Numbered from the stretch's first letter, positions 6,986 through 57,136 are shown. The stretch: 64,000 nucleotides of DNA from Anaerolineae bacterium (GCA_034436155.1 DAOTVP010000088.1:6105-70104), one strand, 5' to 3'. Program-made: numbers and translations. The notes: generated from the sequence alone by a model not told the origin.

Positions 6986-7066
6986 AGGATTATAATCACT
7001 TTCAGATTGACACGGCTAATTTATAACTATTCTATAACAATCTGTATCAGAAAGTCTGAATTTGTC

Positions 7067-8361: not shown

Positions 8362-8380
8362 GTACAGGTTATAAGCGAGT

Positions 8381-8598
8381 AGGGGCGGATTAGGCGAAGC
8401 CGTATATCCGCCCTATGATACGGAAATTTTTAGGTGTGTAGGGGCGGATTAGGCGAAGCCGTATATCCGCCCTATGATACGGAAATTTTTAAGTGTGTAG
8501 GGGTGGATTAGGCGAAGCCGTATATCCGCCCTATGATACGGAAATTTTTAGGTGTGTAGGGGTGGATTAGGCGAAGCCGTATATCCGCCCTGTGATTA
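8381..8598. repeat. Tandem array, 59-bp period, about 3.7 copies, each unit carrying one two-tier REP-like hairpin
   Basis: Units start at 8381, 8440, 8499 and 8558: aGGGGCGGATtaGGCgaaGCCgtatATCCGCCCtatgatacggaaatttttaggtgtgt. Copies 3 and 4 have a C->T change in the outer stem. Lies between the convergent clc and fhs genes. Confidence 0.92.
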
Positions 8599-35211: not shown

Positions 35212-38064
35212 ATGACCATCCGACGCGCTCATATCACCATCAGGGGCATCGTGCAAGGAGTGGGATTTCGCCCGTTCATCCATCGGCTGGCGCATCAAGC
35301 CCAGTTGACGGGGTGGGTGAATAACACCGCGCAAGGGGTGGTCATCGAAATAGAAGGGGATGAGTATCTCATCCAACATGTTTTAGGGCGCATCCGAACC
35401 GAATTGCCACCTCATGCCCATATCGCCGATATGCAGGTGATGTACATCCCCCCTATTGGCGATAGCGATTTCATCATCGAAAAAAGTGCCGATGACGGCG
35501 CAAAAACGGCGTACATCCTCCCCGATTTGGCGATGTGTCCCGATTGCCTGCGCGAAATGACCGACCCGCATAATCGGCGTTATCGCTATCCGTTCATCAA
35601 TTGTACGCATTGCGGACCGCGCTATAGCATCATGACCGATTTGCCCTACGACCGCCCGAATACGACCATGCGCGAGTTTGTCATGTGTGCCGATTGCCAG
35701 CGTGAATATGACGACCCCGCCGATAGGCGTTTTCATGCCCAACCGATAGCCTGCCCCGTGTGCGGACCGCATATCGCGTTATGGGATGCCGATGGACAAA
35801 TTTTAGCCACCCATCACGAGGCGATCATCGCCTGTGCCGATGCGTTACGGGCGGGGAAGATAATCGCCCTCAAGGGCTTGGGCGGGTTTCATCTGCTCGC
35901 CGATGCGACCAATCCAGACGCGATCCACACATTGCGCCAACGCAAACATCGCCCGCATAAACCATTTGCCGTCATGTTTTTGCATATGGATGAGATTCGC
36001 CGTTGGTGTGTGGTGGATGATGTGGCACAGGATTTGCTCACATCCCCCGAAGCGCCGATTGTGTTGTTGGAGAAGCGGATTTATCCCCACGCTCTAACCC
36101 CTGCAGATGAGGAGCATCCCCACGCTCTAACCCCTGCAGATGAGGAGCATCCCCACCCCCTAACCCCCTCCCCACTTCGTGGAGAGGGGGGATGGCATGA
36201 TAATCCACCACATACCCCCCCTTTCTCCATGCAATGGGGAAAGGGGGCAGGGGGGATAGGGGACGATTTACTCGCACCAGACAACCCCACGCTCGGCGTG
36301 ATGCTTCCTTATACACCGCTCCATCACCTGTTGCTATCCGAATGTGGCTTCCCGCTCATCGCCACCAGTGGCAACCGCGCCGATGAGCCGATTTGTACCG
36401 ATGAATACGAGGCGCTCACCCGTCTGCGCGGGATTGCCGATTTGTTTCTGGTGCATAACCGACCCATCCAGCGTCCGATAGATGATTCGGTAGTGCGCGT
36501 CATGGCGGGGCGGGTGATGATGATACGCCGTGCGCGGGGTTATGCGCCACTGCCGATAAAACAACCCCACCCCCTAACCCCCTCCCCAAAAATTGGAGAG
36601 GGGGAACAGCATGATAATTCGTCAAATACTCCCCCTTTCTACATGCAATGGGGAAAGGGGGCAGGGGGGATAGGGGACACGACTTTAGCCGTTGGCGCAC
36701 ACCTCAAAAATGCGGTAGCGATACGGCGCGGGGATGATATTTTCATCAGCCAACATATCGGCGACCTCTCTACCGCAGGCGCACATCATCATTTTGAACA
36801 GACCATCGCCGATTTATCCGCCATGCTCGATGTGCATCCGCAAAAAATTGTGTGCGATGCCCATCCCGATTACGCCTCGACCACCTACGCCCATCAAAGC
36901 GGGTTGCCTATCCGCAAAATTCAGCATCATTACGCCCATGCGTTGGCGTGTTTGGCAGAAAACGGCGTGGAATTGCCCGCGTTGGCGGTCGTCTGGGATG
37001 GCACAGGTTACGGTGATGATGGCACGATTTGGGGCGGTGAATTTTTGCGATTGACCCGTAACAGTTATGAACGGGTGGCGCATGTGCGACCGTTTCCGTT
37101 GATTGGCGGAGATAGCGCCGTGATAGAACCGCGCAAAACGGCGCTTGGTTGGTTGTATAGCTTGCTCGGAGATGCGATTTTTGACGATGAACAATACGCG
37201 CCCGTCCGACAATTCACACCCGACCAACGGCGTGTGTTGCGCCAGATGGTGCAGAAAAAGGTGAACTGTCCGATGACGAGTAGCATGGGGCGCTTGTTCG
37301 ATGCGGTTGCTTCGCTCATGGATGTGTGTCATGTGATGACGCATGAAGCGCAGGCGGCGGTGATGCTCGAATATTTGGCTTCGCAACCCCACCCCCTAGC
37401 GCCGATAAATGGAGAGCGACCCCACCCCCTAGCGCCTATGAATGGAGAGCGACCCCACCCCCTAGCCCCCTCCCCACTTCGTGGAGAGGGGGAACAAAGA
37501 AATTTTTATCCTATGTGGGATGACGAGGCGCTGAAGGGGCTAAAATCTGATATACAGATGTCAATATGTTCAGGTGATAAGGTATCATCACAATCTCAAT
37601 ATGACAATCCAATCGGTGAACACCCCAGCCCCTTGAGTGGGCTTCCAAATTCGATAGCGAGGGGTTTTGAACCCCTCGCGGGGCATCCAACGGCGCAAAC
37701 AAGTCCCCTCTCCATGCAGAGTGATGAGGCGCAAACAAGTCCCCTCTCCATGCAATGGGGAGGGGATTTAGGGGTGGGGTTGCTCACATCGCTCATGGCG
37801 GATATAAACGCGGGCATCCCCAAAACGGTGATAAGCCATAAATTTCATGTTACACTTATAGAGATAATCATCCACACCGCGCAACGCATCGGCGAGAGGC
37901 GCGTTTTGCTCACAGGCGGGTGTTTTTTGAATAAACCCTTGCTCGAAGGCGCGATTATTCGCCTACGCGAGGCGGGATTCATCCCCTATTGGCATTCCCA
38001 AGTCCCGACAGGCGATGGCGGGATATGCTTCGGGCAGGCGGTGGCGTGGATGTTATCATCATGA
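35212..38064 (+). CDS. hypF: [NiFe]-hydrogenase maturation carbamoyltransferase HypF, expanded by three in-frame repeat insertions
   Basis: Acylphosphatase domain (ITIRGIVQGVGFRPF). Two Zn fingers (CPDC...CTHCGPRYS; CADC...CPVCGP). YrdC-like ALKGLGGFHLLADA. Kae1-like C-terminus. Start ATG 35212. About 950 aa, whereas my recollection of typical HypF is roughly 750-800 aa. Confidence 0.9.
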   Translation: MTIRRAHITIRGIVQGVGFRPFIHRLAHQAQLTGWVNNTAQGVVIEIEGDEYLIQHVLGRIRTELPPHAHIADMQVMYIPPIGDSDFIIEKSADDGAKTAYILPDLAMCPDCLREMTDPHNRRYRYPFINCTHCGPRYSIMTDLPYDRPNTTMREFVMCADCQREYDDPADRRFHAQPIACPVCGPHIALWDADGQILATHHEAIIACADALRAGKIIALKGLGGFHLLADATNPDAIHTLRQRKHRPHKPFAVMFLHMDEIRRWCVVDDVAQDLLTSPEAPIVLLEKRIYPHALTPADEEHPHALTPADEEHPHPLTPSPLRGEGGWHDNPPHTPPFSMQWGKGAGGIGDDLLAPDNPTLGVMLPYTPLHHLLLSECGFPLIATSGNRADEPICTDEYEALTRLRGIADLFLVHNRPIQRPIDDSVVRVMAGRVMMIRRARGYAPLPIKQPHPLTPSPKIGEGEQHDNSSNTPPFYMQWGKGAGGIGDTTLAVGAHLKNAVAIRRGDDIFISQHIGDLSTAGAHHHFEQTIADLSAMLDVHPQKIVCDAHPDYASTTYAHQSGLPIRKIQHHYAHALACLAENGVELPALAVVWDGTGYGDDGTIWGGEFLRLTRNSYERVAHVRPFPLIGGDSAVIEPRKTALGWLYSLLGDAIFDDEQYAPVRQFTPDQRRVLRQMVQKKVNCPMTSSMGRLFDAVASLMDVCHVMTHEAQAAVMLEYLASQPHPLAPINGERPHPLAPMNGERPHPLAPSPLRGEGEQRNFYPMWDDEALKGLKSDIQMSICSGDKVSSQSQYDNPIGEHPSPLSGLPNSIARGFEPLAGHPTAQTSPLSMQSDEAQTSPLSMQWGGDLGVGLLTSLMADINAGIPKTVISHKFHVTLIEIIIHTAQRIGERRVLLTGGCFLNKPLLEGAIIRLREAGFIPYWHSQVPTGDGGICFGQAVAWMLSS
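36083..36263 (+). mobile_element. G/C-rich hairpin MITE-like element, copy A, in frame inside hypF; left end triplicated (2 x 33 bp)
   Basis: 33-bp tandem atccccacgctctaacccctgcagatgaggagc at 36083-36115 and 36116-36148. Then a 113-nt core at 36151-36263: CCCCACCCCCTAA..CCCCTCCCCActtcgTGGAGAGGGG..CCCCCTTTCTCCATgcaATGGGGAAAGGGGG..GGGGGGATAGGGGA. Confidence 0.8.
36565..36677 (+). mobile_element. G/C-rich hairpin MITE-like element, copy B, in frame inside hypF
   Basis: 113 nt, colinear with the copy A core. Ends and both hairpin stems are identical; differences are confined to the loops and the central spacer. Confidence 0.8.
37387..37779 (+). mobile_element. Composite 393-nt element (131 codons), copy C, in frame inside hypF
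   Basis: Left end CCCCACCCCCTAG (present three times through a 33-bp tandem duplication, 37387-37452). Right end TAGGGGTGGGG at 37769-37779, an inverted repeat of the left end. Internal hairpins CCCCTCCCCActtcgTGGAGAGGGGG and CCCCTCTCCATgcaATGGGGAGGGG. A 36-bp tandem duplication at 37692-37763. Confidence 0.8.
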
Positions 38065-38093
38065 TATTGGCGGTATATAAAAAGGGATATGAG

Positions 38094-38984
38094 ATGAAAT
38101 ATATAGTTCGACTGATGATTTTATGGCTGGTATTTTTGAGTTTATATAGCACAATCGGGGCGCAATCGGATGAGGCAGAACCAGATACCCATCCCTTATT
38201 CGATATGCTCAGGCGTGTGCCGATTGAATTTGCGAATACCGAAATAAGCTATACCGATTTTCGCGCCGTAGAAGATGCTTTGCCTTATGTGGAACGACCC
38301 GCACTGGGTGAAGTTTTTTATGGTGGGTGGCCGGGATACACACAGCGTTGGTATACCTTTCAGACGAACATCCGTGAGGTAGCTCCAATGGCATTAAGAG
38401 GAGGTGGCGAGATTATATCACAAACGATCGGGTTTGAAATACGCGATATAAATCGCCTATTCACCTTTGGACACCCGCCTAACAATGGCACGATTTGGTC
38501 GGGTGATTTTGATGAAGAGGCTATCCGTACCGCGCATACCGCACGCGGGTATAGCGCCGTCACCATCAATGGTGCCGAAGCATGGTGTTATGAGGGTGAT
38601 TGTTCTATCGGCACTCGTGCCAACCTACAAGAAATCGAGAGAACCAATTTATTTGACTCACGGCTTGGGCGTAAAATTCCATTTGTGATGTGGGATGATA
38701 CCCTCATCAGCACAGAGCATCAATCCATTTTAGAGGATGTTGCCAACCTAACAGAAAACACGTTGTATGATGATGCCGATATTCGCGCACTCGCCCAAGT
38801 CGCCACCGCCCCAGACGGGTTATTGGTCAATTGGTTGTTATGGCGTATGGATATTGCTACTGGCTCTGATATGTCATTGACTACATTAGAACGCGAAGGT
38901 TTAAGCGCCGATACAACGCAATTCAGCACCTATGAATATCAGAATTTGCCACCCTATGATGCGGTTGCTATTGCCGACCGCTAA
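38094..38984 (+). CDS. Secreted hypothetical protein
   Basis: Start ATG 38094 (MKYIVRLMILWLVFLSLYSTIGAQ signal peptide). No recognisable motif. Confidence 0.5.
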   Translation: MKYIVRLMILWLVFLSLYSTIGAQSDEAEPDTHPLFDMLRRVPIEFANTEISYTDFRAVEDALPYVERPALGEVFYGGWPGYTQRWYTFQTNIREVAPMALRGGGEIISQTIGFEIRDINRLFTFGHPPNNGTIWSGDFDEEAIRTAHTARGYSAVTINGAEAWCYEGDCSIGTRANLQEIERTNLFDSRLGRKIPFVMWDDTLISTEHQSILEDVANLTENTLYDDADIRALAQVATAPDGLLVNWLLWRMDIATGSDMSLTTLEREGLSADTTQFSTYEYQNLPPYDAVAIADR

Positions 38985-38996
38985 GAAGGAGACCGT

Positions 38997-39356
38997 ATGG
39001 TGGCATTATTGATGGTGACATATGGGGATGAAGCCACTGCTCAAATTGGCGCGGCGGAACTCTCGGCGCGAGTTTCTAACTTCGCCGATAGAATGCGTAA
39101 TAGGGATAGTGATTCCCTGCAACCGATTTTAGATTTTATCCCTGGCGCGATAGTGAGTCATTCGGTATACGCCAGCGACACGGGGCGGTATGTGGCGATT
39201 GTCCGTATCGAATACGATACACCAACGCTCGAACAGGCGCTCGCATCTCGATCCTCTGAGGATTATTATGCCCCAAATGCCGCCGTCTTTCGGATATTGA
39301 CAGATGCTTTTATAAATCGGGCATTTTATCCCTTATGGACGGTGTGGAATGAATAA
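38997..39356 (+). CDS. Hypothetical protein, in the same frame as the preceding ORF
   Basis: 119 aa. GAAGGAGA RBS 6 nt upstream. Separated from 38094..38984 by a single TAA plus four sense codons. Confidence 0.45.
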   Translation: MVALLMVTYGDEATAQIGAAELSARVSNFADRMRNRDSDSLQPILDFIPGAIVSHSVYASDTGRYVAIVRIEYDTPTLEQALASRSSEDYYAPNAAVFRILTDAFINRAFYPLWTVWNE

Positions 39357-40886: not shown

Positions 40887-41975
40887 ATGTATATTCACCG
40901 AATTATTCTGCGCGATGTTCATAATTTTGATGACCTTGACATCACATTTTATGATGATGTTTGGCAAAAACCGCTCAATTCGGTGTTAATCACAGGTCTG
41001 AATGGGTCTGGAAAAACAACTTTGCTACGGATAATGGCTACGCTTTGGTATAACTTTCAGTGGTGGCTCAAACTTGAAAAAGATGGTGGTGTCGCTTATG
41101 TCTCAAGTCGGTATAAATTACATGAAATTGATGTTAAAAATGGTTTGATGGCAATTGAGTTAAGGGAATTTGGAGACGACCAAAATGACTATCATATTCC
41201 ATCTTCACTCTGGTTATTTGTTGCCTCAGATGACGAAAATATGTCACAATTACCTATATATGATAATCCTGAAGTGGGATACATCGGCTTAAAAGGTCGA
41301 GATAATGATTTTAAGATTGAGACTTCACTCGATAAATATTTAATTGAAAATTTAATAACCCAATTAGAAGCGTTACAAGTTGGTGTTACTGGTGTATTTT
41401 ATTTACCAAATATGATGTTTTTTGATACTGTAGACCGAACAATTTTAGAACCACCCGACCAAACACAATTTGAACGACAACCCGAATCTCTTTACAGGTG
41501 GTTTGTCAGTTATAGTAACAGAGATAGAATGAGCACCCATCTGGAAACGATGCTAAAAAATATTAAACTCAGAAATCCATCAAATTTTGAGGATATGATT
41601 AAAAATATTAATCAATTTTTTCAAGGTCAAAAGCAGATAACTGATTTCGATGCCCAATCACGTCTATTAGTGCGCGTAAATAAAACCCACCCTACATATC
41701 ATTATATAGAGGCACTCAGTTCAGGTGAACAACAATGCCTGATTATGATGGTGATGGTATCCCGTTGGTTGATGCCAGGGGGTGTGGTATTGATAGATGA
41801 ACCTGATTTACACCTGCATGTGAGTTTGCAACGGCATTTTATCCATGAACTTGAAAAAATTGTTCACTCGCGCAATGGTCAACTTATTGTGACATCGCAC
41901 TCGCCAGAAATATGGGATGAATTCTCAGAAACCCAAAGACGACGTTTGGGTGTAAAGGATGTCATCAATGGCTAA
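40887..41975 (+). CDS. ABC/SMC-like P-loop ATPase (AAA_15/21-like), AriA/AbiLi-like
   Basis: Walker A GLNGSGKT (K43), signature-like LSSGEQQ, Walker B/D-loop VVLIDEPDLHLH, H-loop TSHSP. AT-rich relative to its flanks. Confidence 0.78.
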   Translation: MYIHRIILRDVHNFDDLDITFYDDVWQKPLNSVLITGLNGSGKTTLLRIMATLWYNFQWWLKLEKDGGVAYVSSRYKLHEIDVKNGLMAIELREFGDDQNDYHIPSSLWLFVASDDENMSQLPIYDNPEVGYIGLKGRDNDFKIETSLDKYLIENLITQLEALQVGVTGVFYLPNMMFFDTVDRTILEPPDQTQFERQPESLYRWFVSYSNRDRMSTHLETMLKNIKLRNPSNFEDMIKNINQFFQGQKQITDFDAQSRLLVRVNKTHPTYHYIEALSSGEQQCLIMMVMVSRWLMPGGVVLIDEPDLHLHVSLQRHFIHELEKIVHSRNGQLIVTSHSPEIWDEFSETQRRRLGVKDVING

Positions 41976-42756
41976 CATTGTTTGGGATGATGTATTAGGG
42001 GAAAAACCTCATGGATTGGCTGTTGAAGGCAAAACCGATAAAGTAATCATCGAGAAATTTCTTGATGCGGGTGGATGGGATAATTGGCGGTCTAAATTAT
42101 CTGTCCATGTCGTGAATAAGCGCGATAAAGTTCTTCAAGAACTCAGTAAGAATGATACGCGAATTTGGGGACTAATCGATAACGATGAAAGATCAACCCG
42201 TGAGATGAGTGACTTACAAGAACAATATTCACGGTTATTGGTGTTGCCACGATGGACAATTGAAAATTATTTTATTGACCCAAGCGAACTATCCCAAATG
42301 CAAATCCCTATCAGTAAAACGCGACTCGATTTTGATAAAATAGATGACTATCTTCATGATGGCATAAAACATGGTGCATTATGGCATACACTTTATGAAC
42401 GAGATGCTTTTCAATTTTGTCGTGGGCATGAAGATGGTTATCCAATGGCAATTTTGAGCAATGTCGAATTTGATGATGCCACCATTGCTACACGACTAAA
42501 TACATGGCAAAGTCACCTCAATGCAACCGATATTATGCCACTTTATCAACAAAAGTTAGCCGAATTTGAACAACATCGGGATGAAAATTACACCAAACAT
42601 ATTCACGGTAAATATTTTTTCTCTCAGGTGGTTGTTCAAAAAGTTCTGAACTCTATCCAACAAAAATCAACCGATTACTGGCTAGAATTACTAACTGAGA
42701 GCATAACTTATTGTCCAGATGACATGAAAGCTCTTCTGCGTCAAATATTATCTTGA
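41959..42756 (+). CDS. DUF4435/TOPRIM-like (OLD-type) putative nuclease, AriB/AbiLii-like
   Basis: VEGKTDKVIIEKF (TOPRIM Glu, E23), GLIDNDE (DxD, D74/D76), WTIENYFI. 17-nt overlap with the ATPase gene. Confidence 0.65.
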   Translation: MSSMANIVWDDVLGEKPHGLAVEGKTDKVIIEKFLDAGGWDNWRSKLSVHVVNKRDKVLQELSKNDTRIWGLIDNDERSTREMSDLQEQYSRLLVLPRWTIENYFIDPSELSQMQIPISKTRLDFDKIDDYLHDGIKHGALWHTLYERDAFQFCRGHEDGYPMAILSNVEFDDATIATRLNTWQSHLNATDIMPLYQQKLAEFEQHRDENYTKHIHGKYFFSQVVVQKVLNSIQQKSTDYWLELLTESITYCPDDMKALLRQILS

Positions 42757-42757
42757 T

Positions 42758-42782
42758 GAGGACACCACTTGGAGATGTCCTC
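42758..42782. terminator. Hairpin between convergent genes (candidate bidirectional terminator)
   Basis: GAGGACA-ccacttggaga-TGTCCTC. No clear U-tract. Confidence 0.35.
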
Positions 42783-42788
42783 TCATAA

Positions 42789-45722
42789 TCACCCCACATT
42801 GACCACCATCAGATAACCCGTTTGGTCTAAGAAATCGGCTAACACGGTCAACAATGCCACCTCATCGGGCGCGGATGTCAGGGTCACGCTCACCTCGCCA
42901 CGATCGGTATGGATGCCGATGCCTTTTTTGAGCGACCAACCCGCCTCGCGGATGAGCCGATTCGCCACCGATAAAATCGCTTGCTGATTCGGATGCGGAT
43001 GCACACTCAACGGGTAGCCCGTTTGTTGCGCCAATTCGTTCATCTCGGCGTGATAGCGCCCGCCTACTTGTGGCGAAATAAATGTTAACACGATGCCATT
43101 CCCCTTGAGCGAGGTTTTATACAACCCCTTATCGCCCAATTTCGCCCGTATCAGACCATAGGCGGCGTTGATCTCCATCTGCTTGCTGGTGATAGGTGCG
43201 TTTGATGGGCTAGGGGGGGCATTAGTCGCAGATGTGCTATTGCCCGTCACCAATTTGAAGCCCGTCAAATCCAGATACATCGCTTTGAGCGAGGCTAAAA
43301 TATCGGGCGTGATGTCGGCAATATCGGCAACCACTTCGCGCCGATCCATGTAATACGATGGCGATTTGACCAACCGCGCCCCTTTGGGCAACAATTCGTG
43401 CAGGGCTTCGCCGAGCGCCTGTTGATTGGTGGCGGGGGTCAGATGCACCTCCCAACCGGTCACCTCTTCGAGCTGGTCAATCAGGTTCATCCATTTATCG
43501 GGTGCGCGTTCTGGAAAATCAAACGTCAAAATGAGCCGTTTGCGATGCGCCTCCATGCCGACTTTTCGCAGTCGTGCTTCTGGCGGGAAGGTCTCTAATG
43601 CGATTTCGCGGGCGCGATTTTGCTCTACGGGTCCGTCTTGCAGGGCATATTTGGGCAATAAGCCGTCTGGTTCGAGTGTCGCCCCGTCTTGTGCCAATGC
43701 CCACACGATTGTCGCCAACGCCTCTAACCGATTCACCCCTTCGGGCAACGGATTGGGCAATAGTTGGTCGGGGATGACGGGCTTGGCATCCGCCACAAGG
43801 CGCTGACGGATATCCAACGGCAACACCGCATCTTGAATGGTCTTGATTTTGGTTGCCAGCGCGTTCAGTTGGCTTTTGAGCGGGACACCTTCGGCGCGTT
43901 CCCATGTGCCGATGACCCACAGGATCGCATCACCCGCATATTGTCGCCCCTTTGCGCCTTGCACTTCTGCCTCGAAACTATCCTCCCCCGCATTCACCAC
44001 CACCGCGATATGCGGACGATTATTCACATCGCGCAACACCACCAATTTGCCGACAATATCGGGATTTGCCAACATGATAGCACGACTGCGATTGGCTTTT
44101 TGGATTTGCGCCTCAGTTCGCACCTGAAACGTATCGTTGCGTCGCCAATCTTGGGTGAAATAGGGGCTATTCGCCAAAACGGAGATGACCTCACTCGCCC
44201 GTGTGCTATCGCCCCACCACATTTGTGCCAATTCGCGGGCGCTGAAAAAATTCCCCGCCTGACCTTTGAGCGATTCCCACAGCGCAAGCGGGTTCAACGC
44301 TTCCTTATTATCGCCCGATTTTATCCGCGCAATGCCCCACGGGCGCTTGGGAAAATTGAAGGTGATGGTCTGACCAATGCGCGGGGTCATGACATGCCGA
44401 CTGCGTTGGCGCAAGCGTGTGGCGAGGCTATGCCGTGCCGATGGATCGCCATGCACCAGCATGATTTCGCTCGCATCCATCGCTTCTGCCACGCTGACCA
44501 ATTCCGCTTCATCGGCGTGTGCCGAGAGCGAATAGGTATCTATCATACAGCGCACGGTGACGGGTTGCCCATCAATTTTGATGACCCCTGAATCTGCACC
44601 ATCGGCACGCGCTTTTATCAACCGTTGGAGCATTTTACCGGGCGCTTCTTCATCCTGATACCCCGTGAGGAAGATGGCATTTTGGGGATCTCCCGCCATT
44701 TTTTTGGCGTAGAGTGCCGATGCCCCGCCTGTGAGCATCCCGCTACTGGCGATAATCACGGCGGGCATCCCATCGTTCAGCATGGCATCGCGTTCTGCGT
44801 TGGATACAATTGCCTTCACTTTTTCGCGGAAAAACAGGTGTTTATCCCCCGCCATTTTCACACTGTTGGGCGGTAATAAATCGGTGAACGTGGCGTATCC
44901 ATTACACACCGAGCGCACCATGCCATCCACATATACAGGCACATCGAGCTGATCGCGATAGGCGAGGATGATTTGCAACACCTCCTGCGCCCGTCCGAGC
45001 GCGAAGGCGGGGATGAGCGCCTTGCCACCACCATCGGTCACGGCTTTGAGCGAGGCGATGATGCGTTTTTCTTCGGCATCGCGGTTGGCGTGCAGTTTTC
45101 CGCCATACGTGCTTTCGAGTACCAGCGCATCGGCTTTGATACGCGGGATTTTGGCGGGGACGACCGCCCGTTGTTGATTCAGCGACAGGTCTCCACTCAT
45201 CACCAGCGTGCCTTCTTCGCTCTCGAATACCAACATCGCCGCACCTGCGATATGCCCCGCGACATGATACGTGACTTGCAAGCCTTCGCCGAGATGAATC
45301 GGTTGGTTAAATTCCACCGTCTGAAAGGCATCCATCAACCGTTGGCTGGCGATTTCATCGAAAATCGGCAATTCGCCTTCTTCTTCGTGCTTCGATTTCA
45401 TGATGCGTTGGGCATCGGCTTGCAAAATGCGCGTCAAGACTTGTGTTGGGCGAGTCGCCAACACAGGGACGTGCGGATACTGTTCCACCACCAACGGCAA
45501 CGCGCCTGTGTGGTCGGTATGGGCATGGGTGACGAGCAGATAATCGAAGCCACCCATCGCCGAAATGGGTTGTAAATCGGGCAATTGGTCATTTTGGATG
45601 CCCCGATTCGTCTTGGGGGAGATGCGGATGCCGACATCCACCAAAATGCGTTTGCCCGCAATTTCGATGAGTGTGCTACTCGCGCCGACTTCATCCGCCC
45701 CGCCGAGAAATGTAATGTTCAT
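42789..45722 (-). CDS. MBL-fold beta-CASP nuclease (RNase J/CPSF-like core) with a C-terminal extension of about 510 aa and unknown function
   Basis: HAHTDH (aa 66-71), ESTYG, SAHAD and VHGD beta-CASP motifs within aa 1-455. aa 460-977 are unassigned and contain an internally duplicated module of about 125 aa. Confidence 0.85.
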   Translation of the reverse strand: MNITFLGGADEVGASSTLIEIAGKRILVDVGIRISPKTNRGIQNDQLPDLQPISAMGGFDYLLVTHAHTDHTGALPLVVEQYPHVPVLATRPTQVLTRILQADAQRIMKSKHEEEGELPIFDEIASQRLMDAFQTVEFNQPIHLGEGLQVTYHVAGHIAGAAMLVFESEEGTLVMSGDLSLNQQRAVVPAKIPRIKADALVLESTYGGKLHANRDAEEKRIIASLKAVTDGGGKALIPAFALGRAQEVLQIILAYRDQLDVPVYVDGMVRSVCNGYATFTDLLPPNSVKMAGDKHLFFREKVKAIVSNAERDAMLNDGMPAVIIASSGMLTGGASALYAKKMAGDPQNAIFLTGYQDEEAPGKMLQRLIKARADGADSGVIKIDGQPVTVRCMIDTYSLSAHADEAELVSVAEAMDASEIMLVHGDPSARHSLATRLRQRSRHVMTPRIGQTITFNFPKRPWGIARIKSGDNKEALNPLALWESLKGQAGNFFSARELAQMWWGDSTRASEVISVLANSPYFTQDWRRNDTFQVRTEAQIQKANRSRAIMLANPDIVGKLVVLRDVNNRPHIAVVVNAGEDSFEAEVQGAKGRQYAGDAILWVIGTWERAEGVPLKSQLNALATKIKTIQDAVLPLDIRQRLVADAKPVIPDQLLPNPLPEGVNRLEALATIVWALAQDGATLEPDGLLPKYALQDGPVEQNRAREIALETFPPEARLRKVGMEAHRKRLILTFDFPERAPDKWMNLIDQLEEVTGWEVHLTPATNQQALGEALHELLPKGARLVKSPSYYMDRREVVADIADITPDILASLKAMYLDLTGFKLVTGNSTSATNAPPSPSNAPITSKQMEINAAYGLIRAKLGDKGLYKTSLKGNGIVLTFISPQVGGRYHAEMNELAQQTGYPLSVHPHPNQQAILSVANRLIREAGWSLKKGIGIHTDRGEVSVTLTSAPDEVALLTVLADFLDQTGYLMVVNVG

Positions 45723-45737
45723 GTGTGGTTATGTTCC

Positions 45738-46070
45738 TTACTGTGATAATAAGTCTGCAATGGCTTGGCGCAGGACAGGAATTTCTGTTTCAATCGTGCG
45801 CCAAACCTGATTGATTTCGATGTCTTCATAATCATGGGTGATAACATCCCGAAACCCTGCGATATTGCGCCATGGGATATGCGGGTGGTTATCTGTAAAT
45901 TCTTTGCCTAATCGTTTGACGATTTCGCCAAGAATAGTAAAATTTCTGAGAACGGCATCTTGTGCCATTTCGGATGCAAAAAATACTTCTCGCCCATCTT
46001 GCGTGTATCGAATAATTTTATCAATGTGGGTGAGTAAATCATTCAAATACCCGCGCTGAATATCGTTCAT
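45738..46070 (-). CDS. hepT: HepT-like (DUF86, HEPN) RNase toxin
   Basis: 110 aa. RX4H motif FRDVITHDY, GEIVKRL helix. Confidence 0.82.
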   Translation of the reverse strand: MNDIQRGYLNDLLTHIDKIIRYTQDGREVFFASEMAQDAVLRNFTILGEIVKRLGKEFTDNHPHIPWRNIAGFRDVITHDYEDIEINQVWRTIETEIPVLRQAIADLLSQ

Positions 46071-46880: not shown

Positions 46881-47794
46881 TTACTCTAATAATATCCCTC
46901 TCAACCGCGCCACTGCATCCGCGTTAAATCCCAAGCGTGACTCGGCATACGCTATCACCCCGCCATACTCGTCATCTAAATAATGGAACACTGCCCGCAT
47001 CGTATCGGGGTGGGCGGCTAATATCGGGAATAAATTGGCGCTATTCAGGTGCAAAAATGCCAATCGCTTTAACAACCGATGAGCGATCTGTTCGTAATGA
47101 TGATAAAAATGGTTGCTCTGGGTATAATCGGCGACAATCCGCTCCTCTGGCACGCCCAACAACGCCAATATCAACGCGACTATCACGCCTGTGCGGTCTT
47201 TGCCCGCCGTACAGTGGATGAGCATGGGATAATTCGCCTCATCGAGCATCAGGTGCATCATCCGTTTGATGGCGGGGGCGTTTTCTTCGAGGATGATGCT
47301 GGTATACAGTTGGGGCAATAATCCCTCTAATTTTCGTGGATTAAACAGCAACAACCATAACCGCTTGGCTTTATCGCCTTCGGTTGCCATGTTGAGTGTC
47401 TCGTGACGCACGCCGTCAAATCGCGGGTCGGGGTCGTTGATGATTTCGTCCTCACTCCGCAGATCGCATATCAGGCACGGTTGGAGCGCCGATAATGCCG
47501 TTTTGCCGTTGAGGGTGATATACGACAGGCTGGCGGAACGATACACCTTGCCCGTTTTCACGGTGTGATTATCCGATGTGGTCATCCCGCCGATGTCGCG
47601 CACATTCACAACCCCTTCGATGGGGATGAATTGCGTATTGGTGGGGATAATCAGGCTTTCGGGCGCGGGGTAGGGGATAGGTCGGCGCACACGCCACAGG
47701 GTGATGCCGATGAACAGCGCACACGCCACAGGGTGATGCCGATGAACAGCGCCAACGCCATGAGGATAATCAGGATGAGCCAGACAACAGTCAT
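46881..47794 (-). pseudogene. Membrane-anchored protein-tyrosine phosphatase (CX5R), frameshifted by a 32-bp tandem duplication
   Basis: Catalytic loop HCTAGKDRTG. The true ATG at 47794 encodes MTVVWLILIILMALALFIGITLWRV, then the frame is lost at the duplication and reading stops at TGA 47653-47651. The long ORF continues in a different frame. Confidence 0.7.
47686..47749. repeat. Perfect 32-bp tandem duplication
   Basis: cgcacacgccacagggtgatgccgatgaacag at 47686-47717 and again at 47718-47749. Confidence 0.95.
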
Positions 47795-47874
47795 TCACAC
47801 CTCCGTTTTGTTCAGTATAGCACAAACCGCAGGTTGTTGAGACACCGATTTCCCTACCGATTAGCATCATCCCT

Positions 47875-52539: not shown

Positions 52540-53379
52540 ATGACGCTTACACTTGTGCGTTGGGCATTTTTGTTGTTTCGCTATGCGGTACTGGGAATTT
52601 TATGTGTCATCATCATCAGTCCAGTGATGACCGCGTTTTTGGGCAGTGTGCGAACAACCAACGAATTTTTATCGCGCCCATTTGGCTTCCCCGAAGGGGC
52701 ATGGAATTGGCAATTTTACATTGATATTTTACAAAGCGAGTCGTTTTGGAAATTCATGGGCAATAGCATCATCATCACCAGTTTTACCATGGTGCTGAAT
52801 GTCTCTTTGGCGTGCATGTTGGCGTTTGCCTTCACGCGCTTACGCTTTAAGGGGCGGATGTTTGCCTTCAACGTTTTATCATTCGGATTGCTGTTCCCGT
52901 TAACCGTGGCGATTTTGCCTATCTTCATCCAAATCCGTCAATTCGGGTTGATAGATTCACATTGGGGGGTGATTTTGCCGTTAGTGGCGTTTGGATTGCC
53001 CCAAAGCACCGTCATCTTACGCAGTTTCTTCATCGCCATCCCCAATGAACTCGAAGATGCTTCGTATGTGGATGGTTGTAACACCTTTGGATTTTTCAGA
53101 TACATTTTACTGCCGATGGCGCGTCCAGCGATTACGGCGGTAGCGGTGATTCAGATTATCGCCGCGTGGAACGAATATTTCTTGCCCATTCTCGTCTTGA
53201 ATAAAGATGCCTATTGGCCCCTACCCCTCGGTATTATGCAATTTCAGGGGCAGTTTGGCACAGATTGGTCGCGGGTGATGGCTTATGTCATTTTGCTCAT
53301 CATCCCTGCCATCATTTTTTACATCTTTGCCGAGAAATATATCGTGACGGGCTTAACGGGTGGCGAACTAAAAGGCTAA
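52540..53379 (+). CDS. Sugar ABC transporter permease (MalG/UgpE-like)
   Basis: EAA-loop EDASYVDGCNTFGFFRYILLPMARP. Confidence 0.9.
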   Translation: MTLTLVRWAFLLFRYAVLGILCVIIISPVMTAFLGSVRTTNEFLSRPFGFPEGAWNWQFYIDILQSESFWKFMGNSIIITSFTMVLNVSLACMLAFAFTRLRFKGRMFAFNVLSFGLLFPLTVAILPIFIQIRQFGLIDSHWGVILPLVAFGLPQSTVILRSFFIAIPNELEDASYVDGCNTFGFFRYILLPMARPAITAVAVIQIIAAWNEYFLPILVLNKDAYWPLPLGIMQFQGQFGTDWSRVMAYVILLIIPAIIFYIFAEKYIVTGLTGGELKG

Positions 53380-53384
53380 AGCAC

Positions 53385-55742
53385 ATGAACATAACCTATA
53401 AAGATACACAGCTTGGCGTGGATGAACGCGCCGAGCATTTGTTAATGCAGATGACGCTCGAAGAAAAAGTGGCGCAAATCGGTGGCATTTGGTCGAGTGA
53501 TGTCACCGATGAGAGCAAACAGCACTTTGATAAGAACAAAGCCTTGCAGATTGTCCCACATGGCATCGGGCATGTCTCGCGCATTGGTGCGGTGTCGTTG
53601 CTCCCACCGCGACAAAGCGCCCAACTTGCCAATATCATCCAAGCCTATTTTGTGAATGAGACGCGCTTGGGCATCCCCGCCATTGTCCACGAAGAAAATT
53701 GCGCGGGTTATATGGCGAATGGTGCGACTTCATTCCCACAGGCTATCGGCTTGGCGGCAACATGGGAGCCAGACCTCATCCAGCAAATGACCCGTGCCAT
53801 CCGCCAACAAATGCGTTCGGTCGGCGCACATCTGGGGCTTGCGCCCGTATTGGATGTCGCCCGTGACCCGCGTTGGGGACGTGTCGAGGAGACCTTTGGC
53901 GAAGACCCCTTCCTCATATCTACGCTCGGCGTGGCATACATCAATGGGTTGCAAGGCGATGATTTGAAGACGGGCATTGTCGCCACTGCCAAGCACTTTT
54001 TAGGCTATAGCGCATCCGAAGGCGGGATGAATTGGGCTCCTGCACATATCCCGCAACGCACCCTGCGCGAGGTCTACCTGACACCCTTCGCCGCGGCAAT
54101 CAAACACGCCAATGTCGGCGCGGTGATGAATGGTTATCAAGAAATAGACGGCGTGCCGTGTGGCAGTTCAAAAGAATATCTGGTGGATATGTTGCGCGGT
54201 GAATTGGGCTTCACTGGCACGATTGTCGCCGATTATTTCACCATCAATATGTTGGTCGATTATCATCGTATCGCCAAAGATAAGGCAGAAGCGGCGAAAT
54301 ACGCGCTCATGGCGGGGATCGATGTCGAATTGCCTGCGCTCGATTGCTATGCCCAACCGTTGATTGATGCCATTCGTGCGGGTGATATTCGTGAAGAGTT
54401 GCTCGATGCGTGTGTGCGACGGGTGCTACGCCAAAAAATCAGCTTGGGCTTGCTCGATAATCCGTATGTTGATGAGGGGTGCATTGCCGAAGTGTATAAC
54501 ACCCCCGCGCAAATCGAATTATCGCGCACGCTGGCTTCAAAATCGGTGGTGTTGCTCAAAAATGAGGGCGCAATTTTACCCTTGTCGAAATCCATCGGCA
54601 AAATCGCCGTCATCGGACCCAGCGCCGATAACGCCCGCCTCATGCAAGGCGATTATCACTATCCAGCGCACCTCGAAGGCGTGTCGAATATGGGCGATAA
54701 TATGGTCGCGCCCACACCCAATAAAGATAAACTGAATATCAATTGGGACGCGCACCGCCCACCCACCACCACCGTTTTACAGGGTATTCAGGCTATTGTG
54801 GGGCAAAATACCCAAGTGACATATGCCCAGGGGTGTGGCATCACGGGGAATAACGCCTCGTTGTTTGATGAGGCGATCACAAACGCCAAAAATGCCGATG
54901 TTGCCATCGTGGTGGTTGGTGATATTTCGGGTCTGAGTTTGGGTAGTACCAGTGGCGAAGCCATAGACCGCGCCACGCTCGAATTGCCCGGTTTGCAACA
55001 ACAACTCGTCTTAAAAATCGCCGAGACAGGCACCCCGACCATCGTAGTCGTGCTGAATGGTCGTCCGCCCGTCCTCACAGAAATCGCCGACAAGGTGAAC
55101 TCGCTGTTGCTCGGATGGTTGCCCGCGCAAGAAGGTGGCAACGCCATCGCCCAAATCTTATTCGGCGATGCGAACCCCGCGGGGCGCTTGCCCATCACAC
55201 TCCCGCGCCATGTCGGACAAGTTCCCACCTATTACGCACATAAACCATCGGGCGGGCGCTCGCATTGGTTTGGCGATTACGCCGATATGCCCACCAAGCC
55301 GCTTTATCCGTTTGGTTATGGGCTGAGTTATACCCAATTTGAGTATAGCGATTTGCGTCTGAGCGCCGATCGCGCCAGCGCCGATGATGTGATCCATGTC
55401 ACCGTCACCGTGAAAAATATCGGCAATCGGGCGGGTGATGAGGTGGTGCAATTGTATGTATCTGACCCCATCGCCAGCGTCACGCGCCCCGTCAAGATGC
55501 TCAAAGGTTTTCAACGGGTGCATTTAGACGCGGGGCAAAGCGCCCATATCACCTTTGATTTGGATGTGCGCCATCTCGGTTTTTATGACCGCACCATGAC
55601 GCATATCATCGAGGCGGGCGAAATTGTGGTGATGATCGGGCGGTCATCTGATGATATTTGCCTATCGGCATCGTTTGAAATCACCCGCACCCAACCCGTC
55701 GATCGGGTGTATCTGACCCCCGTATCGGTGGCGTTAGGGTGA
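53385..55742 (+). CDS. GH3 beta-glucosidase/beta-xylosidase
   Basis: Start ATG 53385 (MNITYKDTQL..MTLEEKVAQ). KHFLGY, GFTGTIVADY nucleophile region. C-terminal FnIII-like domain (VVQLYVSDPIASVTRPVKMLKGF). Confidence 0.88.
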   Translation: MNITYKDTQLGVDERAEHLLMQMTLEEKVAQIGGIWSSDVTDESKQHFDKNKALQIVPHGIGHVSRIGAVSLLPPRQSAQLANIIQAYFVNETRLGIPAIVHEENCAGYMANGATSFPQAIGLAATWEPDLIQQMTRAIRQQMRSVGAHLGLAPVLDVARDPRWGRVEETFGEDPFLISTLGVAYINGLQGDDLKTGIVATAKHFLGYSASEGGMNWAPAHIPQRTLREVYLTPFAAAIKHANVGAVMNGYQEIDGVPCGSSKEYLVDMLRGELGFTGTIVADYFTINMLVDYHRIAKDKAEAAKYALMAGIDVELPALDCYAQPLIDAIRAGDIREELLDACVRRVLRQKISLGLLDNPYVDEGCIAEVYNTPAQIELSRTLASKSVVLLKNEGAILPLSKSIGKIAVIGPSADNARLMQGDYHYPAHLEGVSNMGDNMVAPTPNKDKLNINWDAHRPPTTTVLQGIQAIVGQNTQVTYAQGCGITGNNASLFDEAITNAKNADVAIVVVGDISGLSLGSTSGEAIDRATLELPGLQQQLVLKIAETGTPTIVVVLNGRPPVLTEIADKVNSLLLGWLPAQEGGNAIAQILFGDANPAGRLPITLPRHVGQVPTYYAHKPSGGRSHWFGDYADMPTKPLYPFGYGLSYTQFEYSDLRLSADRASADDVIHVTVTVKNIGNRAGDEVVQLYVSDPIASVTRPVKMLKGFQRVHLDAGQSAHITFDLDVRHLGFYDRTMTHIIEAGEIVVMIGRSSDDICLSASFEITRTQPVDRVYLTPVSVALG

Positions 55743-55760
55743 TATTTTAACCGTAAAAAA

Positions 55761-55872
55761 TCCCCCATCCCCAGCCCTTCCCCCATCGAATAGGGGAAGG
55801 GGGTAAAAACCACCTTTGAGGTAGGATTTTAGCCTCCTCTCCATGCAATGGGGAGGAGGTTGGGGGTGGGGA
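55761..55872. mobile_element. G/C-rich hairpin MITE-like element, intergenic copy E
   Basis: TCCCCCATCCCCAGCC ... CCCTTCCCCcatcgaataGGGGAAGGG ... CCTCCTCTCCATgcaATGGGGAGGAGG ... GGTTGGGGGTGGGGA, with inverted termini. Confidence 0.75.
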
Positions 55873-55897: not shown

Positions 55898-57136
55898 ATG
55901 AAAAAACTAACTTTACTTTGCATACTTATCTTCACACTAGGATTAACCGCCGTGAGCGCACAAGACGACACCAAAATCCCACAACTGCCTAGCGAAGGCG
56001 CATTTTTCACGGGTGAATATCGCAATATCTTATCGGAATGGGGGTTATCGGATGAAGAAATCCAAACCCGCATTGATGAAACATTCCAGCAATTGTTTTA
56101 TGGCGATGACGACAACGAGCGCGTGTATTACGAACTCGGTGATGACATGGCGTATATCGTCGACATCAACAACAACGATATTCGCACCGAAGGCATTTCG
56201 TATGGCATGATGATCACCGTCCAGATGGATAAAAAAGCCGAATTTGACCGCCTCTGGAAGTGGGCATATACCCATATGTATCACAAAGAGGGTCCGTGGG
56301 CGGGGTATTTCTGTTGGCATACCCGCCTAGACGGGACATGTATCGACAACAACCCCGCATCCGATGGTGAAATTTGGTATGCCACCGCGCTATTTTTTGC
56401 CTCTGCCCGTTGGGGTGATGGTGAAGGCATTTTTAATTATAAAGAATATGCCCAAACCATCCTCAACACCATGATTCATCAAAAAACTGCCCTCGCCACA
56501 CCGACATTCGACCCCGAAACCAAGTTAGTGGTGTTTGTGGCGCAAATTGGAGAGGTGAGCCAATTCACCGATCCATCGTATCAAGCGCCTCATTTTTATG
56601 AAATTTGGGCGCGGTTAGCCACGCAAGATAACGAATTTTGGCAAGAAGCCATCCAAGCCGCCCGTGAACATTGGCGTAATGCCGCCCATCCCGTCACAGG
56701 GTTGATGGCGAATTATGCTGAATTCACAGGTGAACCGCGGGATTGGGGTGGTAGTGATTATGGCGGTGTGTATTATGCCGATGCGTGGCGCATTGGCATG
56801 ATGGTGGCGCTGGATTACATCTGGTTTGCCCCAGACCAATGGCATGTCGAACAGAGCAACCGCTATCTGCGCTTCTTCCACGATTTAGGCATCGGGCGCT
56901 ATAACAGTCGCTTCTTGATTGATGGCACGCCACAGGGCTTTCAACATCGTTCTACGGGGCATATCGCCACCAACGCCGTTGCCACCCTCGCGTCTACCGA
57001 GCCGTTTGTGTGGGATTTCCTCGAAGAATTTTGGAATACGCCCATTCCGACAGGACAATATCGGTATTATGATGGATTGTTGTATATGATGGCGTTGTTG
57101 CAGACCAGTGGCAATTTTAGAATTTATATGCCATAA
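55898..57136 (+). CDS. GH8 glycoside hydrolase (xylanase / exo-oligoxylanase-like) with signal peptide
   Basis: EGISYGMMI catalytic-acid region and GH8 signature-like ASDGEIWYATALFFASARW. Signal peptide MKKLTLLCILIFTLGLTAVSAQ. Confidence 0.78.
   Translation: MKKLTLLCILIFTLGLTAVSAQDDTKIPQLPSEGAFFTGEYRNILSEWGLSDEEIQTRIDETFQQLFYGDDDNERVYYELGDDMAYIVDINNNDIRTEGISYGMMITVQMDKKAEFDRLWKWAYTHMYHKEGPWAGYFCWHTRLDGTCIDNNPASDGEIWYATALFFASARWGDGEGIFNYKEYAQTILNTMIHQKTALATPTFDPETKLVVFVAQIGEVSQFTDPSYQAPHFYEIWARLATQDNEFWQEAIQAAREHWRNAAHPVTGLMANYAEFTGEPRDWGGSDYGGVYYADAWRIGMMVALDYIWFAPDQWHVEQSNRYLRFFHDLGIGRYNSRFLIDGTPQGFQHRSTGHIATNAVATLASTEPFVWDFLEEFWNTPIPTGQYRYYDGLLYMMALLQTSGNFRIYMP

Follow-up and report, generated by a model that had tools for sequence, protein, structure and literature searches.

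The 393-nt stretch at 37387-37779 within hypF of an Anaerolineae genome is a mosaic of five parts and not one element. It was probably built over time at a permissive surface loop of HypF, rather than by the insertion of a single element, and is probably translated as a disordered loop. The window, by which we mean the whole 64-kb stretch of DNA that was analysed, contains five copies or clusters of the same palindromic repeat family, and four of these five lie in genes (three in hypF and one in a gene for a MenE-like ligase). The hairpin motif was found at at least 118 genome loci elsewhere, nearly all of them in Anaerolineae/Chloroflexota MAGs and often at contig ends. This bears out the initial annotation, which had assigned the ends of the stretch to a dispersed element family.

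The canonical unit of the family is a doublet of two inverted modules of ~40 nt, with a length of 113-135 nt in the copies measured. Each module consists of a C4/G4 terminus and a 10-bp hairpin, the two modules are separated by a spacer of 6-35 nt, and in canonical copies the right module is the reverse complement of the left. Solo modules occur besides the doublets. The element end sequences include CCCCACCCC and AGGACTTTCGC. Both patterns are enriched in the window, the terminus with 10 occurrences (0.93 expected) and the hairpin with five (0 expected). In related genomes, 11 of 61 internal copies are located in long open frames and 50 outside them. Element identity ranges from 0.87 to 0.92 within a genome and from 0.79 to 0.81 between genomes at orthologous sites, and the sequences point to genome-specific homogenisation. 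The modules are flanked by CTAG/CTAA, AAGT or ATTT; a separate, GTAG-tagged REP family is present in these genomes, at 8379-8596 of the window and in frame in the HypF proteins P0006 and P0007. The flanks of ~15 copies, inspected by eye and including no filled/empty site pair, showed no consistent direct repeat. No transposase or RAYT gene was found beside the modules in the 64 kb of the source genome and ~730 kb of loci, nearly all from other genomes. Outside hypF, two ORFs have modules on both sides, encoding a Hvo_1808-like surface protein and a NuoF-like protein. That the family is mobile we infer from its copy number and distribution only.

The hypF gene (35212-38064, plus strand) hosts three in-frame repeat insertions. 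It encodes a protein of 950 residues, identical to the database protein P0001, in which all five Pfam HypF domains are present (Acylphosphatase, zf-HYPF, Sua5_yciO_yrdC, HypF_C and HypF_C_2); the gene had been correctly named at the outset, and the third site placed in the Kae1-like C-terminal part. Aligned with PDB entry 3VTH (E = 2.8e-170), the protein falls into four blocks, and the breaks between them coincide exactly with the three insertions. Site 1 (36083-36263, plus strand) comprises two 33-nt partial duplicates of a left module (36083-36148; TRF period 33, 2.6 copies) and a canonical 113-nt doublet (36151-36263). Site 2 (36565-36677, plus strand), identified by sequence comparison, is a canonical 113-nt doublet read as PHPLTPSPKIGEGE...PPFYMQWGKGAGGIG, and its element is 87% identical to that of site 1. 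Neither of these insertions, nor the 33-nt and 36-nt tandem arrays, had been recorded in the initial annotation. The intergenic copy (55760-55872, plus strand), found by motif match, lies between an ORF at 53214-55742 and an ORF at 55898-57136. The remaining copy (60950-61088, minus strand) is in frame in the MenE-like AMP ligase (ORF 59939-61435, minus strand), where it is read as PLSPQPPFPIAWRKGEQKSPLSMQWGGDLGVGTQTSPLSVQDLGVG and sits just upstream of the TSGTSGKPKG P-loop; the alignment of the ligase with PDB entry 5BUQ breaks at query residues 99-161 versus chain residues 107-148.

Site 3 begins at hypF codon phase 0, and its flanks are HEAQAAVMLEYLAS and LLTSLMADINAG. Its coordinates, its sequence, its inverted ends CCCCACCCC/GGGGTGGGG and its two hairpins (37467-37491 and 37741-37765) are as first described. 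The left terminus, CCCCACCCCCTAG, stands at 37387 and is repeated at 37420 and 37453, while the right terminus, TAGGGGTGGGG, ends at 37779. A repeat search returned a perfect 13-nt inverted repeat (GCAACCCCACCCC at 37383-37395 and GGGGTGGGGTTGC at 37771-37783) as well as 45-nt inverted arms with 82% complementarity (37447-37491 and 37741-37785). Tandem arrays are present on both sides, with 2.5 copies of a 33-nt unit on the left and two copies of a 36-nt unit on the right. The AT-richer core that had been noticed measures 199 nt (37493-37691) and has a GC content of 45.7%.

From left to right, all on the plus strand, the stretch opens with two 33-nt partial duplicates of the left module (37387-37452; repeat families D1/D2, TRF period 33), which read PHPLAPINGER and PHPLAPMNGER and have retained the terminus while the left hairpin arm is gone. 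They are followed by an intact left module (37453-37492), delineated by the repeat search and formed by the terminus and hairpin 1, CCCCCTCCCCA-cttcg-TGGAGAGGGGG, with 97.5% identity to the left module of site 1. Next comes an orphan AT-rich segment of 127 nt (37493-37619; ~42% GC), which is open in the hypF frame and for which no relative was detected. Its composition is noncoding-like: the first 162 nt of the core (37493-37654) have 42% GC, compared with 43.4% in the noncoding DNA of the window, and GC3 over the core (195 nt from 37495) is 0.40, compared with 0.63 in hypF. The segment at 37620-37691, a decayed older element by alignment to canonical elements and to orthologous hypF genes, is composed of the terminus-like CCCCAGCCCC, a collapsed hairpin 1, a spacer with the hairpin GCGAGGGGTTttgAACCCCTCGC and the start of hairpin 2. 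A 36-nt partial duplicate (37692-37727; repeat family D3) then repeats the spacer end and the left arm of hairpin 2, and the stretch is closed by an intact right module (37728-37779) containing the spacer end, hairpin 2, CCCCTCTCCATgcaATGGGGAGGGG, and the terminus ATTTAGGGGTGGGG. The right module is recognized by its sequence and by its match to other copies: 60992-61040, on the opposite strand, shares 98% identity with it, and in MAG F11_13 the high-copy element has exactly the same right end. If translated, the insertion would encode candidate peptides such as NFYPMWDDEALK and GFEPLAGHPTAQTSPLSMQSDEAQ.

The 393 nt contain no stop codon in the hypF frame and are open in that frame only, with 10 and 9 stops in the other forward frames and 9, 2 and 2 in the reverse frames; the translation and flanks quoted in the initial annotation match. 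When the sequence was shuffled with its composition preserved, only 92 of 20000 versions (0.46%) remained open. Since, in addition, the array units measure 33 and 36 nt and the indel between near-identical genomes 72 nt, the preservation of the frame at site 3 is supported as non-random. The length of exactly 131 codons that was originally emphasised follows in part from borders drawn within an intact ORF.

In the AF2 model of HypF (pTM 0.81), the fold is confident outside the loops, and pLDDT values below 50 are found almost only at residues 292-347 (site 1), 453-486 (site 2) and 737-828, as well as at 848-851 within the site-3 insertion. Residues 725-852 are modelled without secondary structure except for a 4-residue helical turn at 816-819. 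All three insertions are thus predicted to be disordered loops on an otherwise confident fold. The loop at site 3 spans 156 residues, compared with a median of 51 and a maximum of 85 among 84 homologues. Moreover, a Y-x-F ... (I/V)-x-(W/H) segment, which is occupied in at least 90% of these homologues, is missing, and the alignments indicate that the right-hand array stands in place of this conserved β-hairpin module. The absence of the native module and the length of the loop would fit a hypF gene that is decaying or dispensable in this lineage, with the insertions as accumulating junk and the open frame as a leftover. So would two further features: hypE is not adjacent to hypD in the window, unlike in the L121 locus, and the near-identical genomes differ in hypF outside the arrays by a single substitution, at 35717, which is non-synonymous (P to L). 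We nevertheless regard decay as rather doubtful. The 950-codon ORF is intact despite three insertions, all columns invariant across 85 HypFs are retained, among them the cysteines of the zinc finger and the Kae1-like HxxxH motif, and the fold outside the loops is confidently predicted. The neighbouring hox structural genes, hypC and hypD are likewise intact, and the chance that 393 nt would have stayed open is ~0.005. HypF may have retained its activity; with the conserved module lost, the protein may also be impaired.

Comparison with orthologous hypF genes bears directly on the inner part of site 3. In both P0002 and P0005, a left module occupies the same codon (LAxx|PHPL) as in the window, and the spacer reads NSINGF in these two proteins versus NSIARGF in the window. 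Aligned to canonical elements of L035 in the plus orientation, 37620-37691 scores z = 5.7-6.2, which none of 300 shuffles reached; the slightly longer 37615-37691 also resembles canonical elements (z up to 6.2), while 37493-37619 matches them in neither orientation. The encoded peptide SPLSGLPNSIARGFEPLAGH resembles SDVPSLQQPVAQGFEPDARH of P0003 (2 of 1000 shuffles reach the score). At the DNA level, this match has 22 of 30 identities, hand-counted on the alignment, with a 13-nt exact core that no shuffle in 500 equalled. In 794 kb, the 13-mer GGGTTTTGAACCC occurs only in the window, in L001/L123, which are near-identical and carry it at the same locus, and in L121 at the orthologous position. 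These alignments indicate positional orthology between ~60-72 nt (37620-37691) and sequence resident in the P0003 allele, which lacks the hairpins, and they identify the segment as a decayed copy of an element present at the same site in P0002. The segment being resident, the two termini come from different modules of a pile-up and not from one transposed unit.

This orthology weighs against an insertion of the 393 nt into hypF as a single element, whether composite or parental, that carried the AT-rich core as cargo, a reading we consider unlikely. Its attraction lies in the inverted-repeat ends, in an orientation of left and right modules that is the same as in canonical doublets, and in the fold energy of the whole 393-nt DNA, which is far better than that of shuffled sequences (z = -5.4). 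However, 248 nt separate the modules here, compared with 6-35 nt in canonical copies, and the stretch has no ORF of its own and no room for a transposase. The right module, furthermore, is of another subtype than the right modules paired with the same left-module type at sites 1 and 2. Finally, the core was found nowhere else: it has no second copy in the 64-kb window, no further copy turned up in the element-bearing loci of related genomes (794 kb), and scans of JGI metagenomes (two) and of viruses (one) gave no match to its 21-25-mers. The termini and modules do recur elsewhere, but no other copy of the core was found in these searches. The idea of a longer or parental family member, raised in the initial annotation, is not supported on these grounds, while the nested insertion that was offered there as an alternative comes closer to the truth, given the mosaic of modules.

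At the protein level, a full HMMER search with the core peptide revealed no true relative among 1.84 billion representative proteins. Four matches were returned, all to repeat proteins; the 13 of 31 identities are summed over many repeats, and we rejected them as chance or compositional. The 135-residue insertion peptide had no match in a collection of 5.8 billion proteins, in which the word index is limited on low-complexity sequence. A profile of six canonical element peptides also gave no match, although P0002 contains three such peptides, and we read both of these blanks as a limit of the index and not as absence. We also considered whether the core hides the displaced native β-hairpin, but resemblances to L122 (GGTATCAT and CAATCTCAA) were no better than those of shuffles at the DNA and protein levels (p = 0.08-0.7).

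The arrays differ between near-identical genomes. Over 21 kb, the window and the 99.96%-identical genome L001 show few differences, of which the arrays account for two SNPs and for the single large indel, of 72 nt. L001 has four 36-nt units where the window has two (three extra copies versus one), a difference that could conceivably reflect partial short-read collapse, as all genomes are MAGs. Two of the four units in L001 carry private SNPs, however, which argues for real copies.

Taken together, site 3 most likely arose by accretion from a building block that would be a non-autonomous palindromic repeat of Anaerolineae. An old copy at the site would predate the split from the lineages of P0002, P0003 and P0005 and have decayed into 37620-37691; this order of events rests on three orthologous DNA sequences with 70-80% protein identity, and the same alignments would also be explained by a window-like ancestor, with deletions having occurred in the other lineages. 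The old copy is now flanked by the two intact modules, from each of which partial tandem duplicates of 33 or 36 nt would have arisen, probably through hairpin slippage, and the 127-nt noncoding-like orphan separates the left module from the old copy. The right-hand array probably replaced ~17 native codons encoding the conserved β-hairpin. Only variants in frame and without stops would have survived in the gene, which leads to a Pro/Gly/Ser-rich disordered loop of ~131 residues that is most likely translated.

A bolder proposal, to which we give little weight, is that the repeat family supplies new protein segments across the lineage. In this HypF, the duplicated peptide of the right module (TAQTSPLSMQ ... 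TSPLSMQWG) would then be more than tolerated: it would have displaced, and perhaps structurally substituted for, the conserved two-strand part of the Kae1-like domain. The three HypF loops would be recurrent landing pads for C4/G4 hairpins and GTAG REPs across Anaerolineae, and the number of in-frame copies would tune loop length.

It is highly improbable that the stretch is removed or skipped and thus absent from mature HypF, be it as an intein, an intron or a byp-like translational bypass. In Magnusiomyces mitochondria, GC-rich hairpin elements in coding regions are bypassed by ribosomes, and the 393 nt are strongly structured. HypF, however, has only its own Pfam domains, with no intein or Hint domain, and the junctions S|QPHP and GVG|L (S|Q...G|L) misfit intein chemistry. 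Rfam finds no intron or other RNA family anywhere in the window, and promoter and terminator scans were also blank in the region. Neither removal nor bypass needs an open frame, yet no frame other than that of the host is open in the stretch, and the array units have lengths divisible by three. With similar assurance we set aside an assembly artefact in which the core was created by chimeric joining of MAG sequence at the repeats: other contigs do break exactly at the repeats (L002 starts at 37750 and L124 ends at site 1) and many MAG contigs end in the element, but the identical core is found in two assemblies that differ by SNPs and array copy number, and such a join would seldom be in frame and stop-free.

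The closest functional parallel is offered by the Rickettsia palindromic elements (RPEs), palindromic repeats of ~100-150 bp that often lie in frame within unrelated housekeeping genes (PMC10969869, PMC3733652), are translated with the host protein and have been judged compatible with its fold (Ogata et al. 2000, 2002, as summarised in PMC10969869, PMC3733652). The Anaerolineae element is likewise small and palindromic, in the window, four of the five copies or clusters are read in the frame of a gene, at places where disorder is predicted, and the in-frame sites coincide with the 3VTH alignment breaks and the disordered AF2 segments. In contrast to RPEs, the host is a free-living member of the Chloroflexota, the sequence is unrelated, most copies across related genomes are intergenic, the peptides are Pro/Gly-rich and predicted to be disordered instead of forming amphipathic helices, and the copies bear in-frame partial tandem duplications. 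Given the host phylum and the C4/G4 hairpin, membership by sequence is very unlikely; the element works like an RPE but is not one.

In architecture, the family resembles REPs and REPINs, with an inverted doublet of two imperfect palindromic modules of 20-40 nt that can form a long hairpin and encloses a less conserved spacer (Bertels and Rainey 2011, PMC3116915; Di Nocera et al. 2013, PMC3733652). Solo modules that look like decayed remnants, tandem and clustered arrangements and genome-specific variants are further shared traits, and no target-site duplication was evident in the flanks inspected by eye. REP palindromes, however, carry a GTAG or CGTC tetranucleotide tag at one end (PMC3733652), which the modules lack, the GTAG palindromes of these genomes being another family; no RAYT gene was found next to the modules in the ~794 kb examined, and REPINs are essentially extragenic. 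Intragenic bacterial MITEs are also known, among them ERIC, Nezha, Anabaena MITEb/MITEe and QMITE1 (reviewed in PMC10969869). Like these, the element is short (below ~300-500 bp), has no coding capacity of its own (the mosaic contains only the host-frame ORF), bears terminal inverted repeats, is dispersed in many copies and is occasionally fused in frame with host ORFs. It differs in that the terminal repeats are themselves hairpins; no target-site duplication was identified in the ~15 copies inspected, nor a related insertion sequence in the DNA covered. Site 3, where several palindromic modules belonging to one family alternate in orientation with other short motifs between them, also recalls the BIMEs of E. 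coli, but these are extragenic, transcribed and untranslated, whereas the mosaic lies within coding sequence and keeps the frame.

We describe neither a new kind of mobile element nor a new mechanism, as in-frame RPE-like and REPIN/MITE-like repeats are already known. The locus is a clear case outside Rickettsia of palindromic selfish DNA in frame in housekeeping genes, here in a free-living uncultured phylum. Such repeats fragment MAG assemblies, lengthen proteins and yield spurious 'PSPxxGEG / SMQWGKG' peptides, which annotators should recognise. As hypF shows, insertions of this sort can pile up and decay, undergo duplication in steps divisible by three and even oust a conserved structural module without closing the reading frame of the host gene.

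Five sites in the window carry C4/G4-terminus palindromic repeats. Three of them are in-frame insertions in hypF (36083-36263, 36565-36677 and 37387-37779, sites 1 to 3; plus strand), the fourth is intergenic (55760-55872), and the fifth is a cluster (60950-61088), in frame in a minus-strand gene. Site 3 had been read in the initial annotation as a longer or parental composite element, or a nested insertion, inside hypF. The observation is real, and its coordinates, sequences and translation were correct. At the ends, arms of 45 nt are 82% complementary and include a perfect inverted repeat of 13 nt; the hairpins are at 37467-37491 and 37741-37765. The 393 nt contain no stop in the hypF frame, compared to 10 and 9 in the other forward frames and 9, 2 and 2 in the reverse frames, and 92 of 20000 shuffles stayed open, which upholds the proposed frame constraint on hypF.

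The termini belong to a genuine family, as had been supposed: a species-representative genome collection has the hairpin motif YYTCTCCATGCAATGGGGARR in at least 118 stretches, and the matches listed are nearly all from Anaerolineae/Chloroflexota MAGs, many at contig ends. In the lined-up copies, the left module (~40 nt) consists of a C4-type terminus and the hairpin CCCCTC(T/C)CCA-N4-TGGAGAGGGG. The right module, approximately its reverse complement, ends in ATTTAGGGGTGGGG or CWGGGGGGATAGGGG. A spacer of 6-35 nt separates the two in a normal unit, and the copies measured are 113-135 nt long; solo modules occur too. The stem asymmetry is conserved at both site-3 hairpins and in the lined-up copies, with a T-G pair in the hairpin 2 orientation that becomes a C-A mismatch on the opposite strand (hairpin 1 orientation). 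This could indicate which strand is relevant as single-stranded DNA or RNA. In the MAG F11_13 (DAOTTO01; L007, L017, L021, L099 and many other loci), the element has a further inverted repeat on its outside, AGGACTTTCGCTTAC ... GTGAGCGAAAGTCCT, which brings it to 135 nt; this variant is abundant enough for dozens of contigs to end within it, and may be the most active of the family. Being G/C-rich, canonical copies have no stop codon in 2-4 of the six frames. In other genomes, 11 of 61 internal copies lie within long open frames, so that coding insertions are a surviving minority and no rule. The window cluster at 60950-61088, which includes a partial duplication of one module (period 48 nt), places ~46 in-frame residues directly before the TSGTSGKPKG P-loop of a MenE-like 2-succinylbenzoate-CoA ligase, an AMP ligase (59939-61435).

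Pfam and Rfam searches ruled out an intein, an intron or any Rfam family for 37387-37779. Judged from its sequence, site 3 is best described as a mosaic and no single element. It begins with a pair of partial duplicates of the left module, 33 nt each (37387-37452), followed by the left module itself, intact (37453-37492). Next come an orphan segment of 127 nt (37493-37619) and the body of a decayed element (37620-37691). At the right, a partial duplicate of 36 nt, which takes in the spacer end and left arm of hairpin 2 (37692-37727), borders an intact right module (37728-37779). The “inverted termini” thus belong to separate modules that have piled up here. The orphan aligns to no canonical element in either orientation, and no relative of it, nor any further copy of the core, was found in the window, the fetched loci, two metagenome scans or one viral scan. 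Among 1.84 billion representative proteins it has no true relative, four matches being chance matches to repeat proteins. The possibility that it is a displaced native hairpin was tested and found no support. The GC content of the AT-rich stretch 37493-37654 is 42% (43.4% in window noncoding DNA, 55% in hypF) and GC3 over the whole core is 0.40 versus 0.63 in hypF, which fits a sequence evolving almost freely, save for the need to stay open.

The decayed body aligns forward to canonical elements of another genome (z = 5.7-6.2; none of 300 shuffles scored as high) and is the positional orthologue of resident hypF sequence in other genomes. Across 794 kb, the 13-mer GGGTTTTGAACCC is confined to site 3, both in the window and in the corresponding locus of the near-identical L001/L123, and to the equivalent position in L121, the locus of the orthologue P0003, which is free of hairpins at that point; 20 residues around it match P0003 (2 of 1000 shuffles reach the score). 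In the orthologues P0002 and P0005, a left module sits at the same codon as in window site 3, with the site-specific spacer NSINGF versus NSIARGF. These shared features argue that an element was probably already at site 3 before lineages of ~70-80% HypF identity split. The initial interpretation therefore holds in part. The repeat family and the constraint on the frame stand, while a parental composite element, or insertion as a single element, does not agree with an inner segment resident in P0003, ends from different modules and an orphan with no relative in the sequences searched.

Of the known systems, MITEs share the size, inverted repeats and copy number of the family; neither a target-site duplication nor an autonomous partner was identified. 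In architecture it resembles REPINs, inverted doublets of palindromes with decaying singlets (PMC3116915), as its unit is an inverted palindrome doublet and singlets are present. Unlike REPINs, however, its modules lack the GTAG/CGTC tag, and no RAYT was seen beside them in the DNA examined. Functionally it is like RPEs, palindromic repeats that are read in frame and translated as part of a host protein where it tolerates them (PMC10969869, PMC3733652), in that it lies in frame at permissive HypF positions with translation predicted. A limited literature search found no published description of this C4/G4 hairpin family.

The hypF ORF (35212-38064) encodes the acylphosphatase, HypF zinc-finger, YrdC-like and both Kae1-like Pfam domains. 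A near-universal module between Kae1-like helices, Y-x-F ... (I/V)-x-(W/H), is occupied in at least 90% of 84 homologues and present in all six close orthologues as YPFDIxxENxTHIIHPH; in window HypF the right-hand array takes its place. The site-3 loop spans 156 residues versus a median of 51 and a maximum of 85 in the homologues. AlphaFold2, run with an 85-sequence alignment, returned a confident HypF fold (pTM 0.81), with pLDDT below 50 almost only in residues 292-347, 453-486, 737-828 and 848-851 (the last within the site-3 insertion). These segments are the three insertions, which also interrupt the alignment with the closest solved structure, Caldanaerobacter HypF (3VTH, E = 2.8e-170); residues 725-852 show no secondary structure save a 4-residue helical turn (816-819). 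All columns invariant across the 85 HypFs are kept, and together with the modelled fold this makes the gene look maintained, although the protein, lacking its native hairpin, may be impaired.

The gene is part of a hoxEFUYH / hypF / hypC / hypD cluster, with no hypE among its immediate neighbours. Between hypF and hypC lie two ORFs without a Pfam match, 37989-38984 (331 or 319 aa), which overlaps the hypF 3′ end by 76 nt, and 38997-39356 (119 aa); in L121, hypC directly follows hypF. The region 3′ of hypD (40887-46000; gene calls from L001) holds an AAA_15/AAA_21 ATPase, a 265-aa ORF, a 977-aa metallo-beta-lactamase/beta-CASP protein and a HepT/MNT toxin-antitoxin pair, and resembles an inserted block of the defence or accessory type; L121 has hypE (AIRS/AIRS_C) at the corresponding spot. 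Further downstream, a tandem repeat (47685-47760; 2.4 copies, 95% matches), whose 32-nt period is no multiple of three, lies close to the N-terminus of a minus-strand Y_phosphatase3-family ORF (46881-47870).

A contig of GCA_037442285.1 is 99.96-99.98% identical to the window over 21 kb, differing outside arrays by one hypF substitution (35717) and one 1-nt indel (49030). Within arrays, it has two SNPs in the site-1 33-nt repeat and four 36-nt units at site 3 versus two in the window. The 72 nt by which they differ leave the frame intact, and private SNPs are present in the additional units. Element identity is 0.87-0.92 within one genome versus 0.79-0.81 at orthologous sites of different genomes, a pattern suggestive of gene conversion or re-insertion.

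A second, classical REP-like family is present in the same genome as a tandem array at 8379-8596 (59 nt × 3.7 copies, 97% matches; GTAG-tagged palindrome GTAGGGGCGGAT...ATCCGCCCTA), between the convergent ORFs 7007-8302 (+) and 8616-10319 (-). In other lineages, GTAG-tagged REP doublets lie in frame at the same HypF loops, as in the hypF of P0007 (L122:1632-1880; GTAGGGACGGCATATATGCCGTCC ... GGACATGATATATCATGTCCCTAC, read VGTAYMPS...DMIYHVPT) and also in P0004 and P0006 (alignment A1). Since GTAG REPs and C4/G4 elements occupy the same places, the three loops are general permissive sites that accept unrelated repeat families. HypFs of more distant taxa (alignment A3; e.g. P0009, P0012, P0013, P0020, P0023, P0036) have Pro/Gly-rich inserts of the type SPSPKGGGE...RRGAGGEV or PLPxRGEG at sites 1 and 2, so that translated G/C-hairpin repeats in HypF loops may be widespread beyond this clade.
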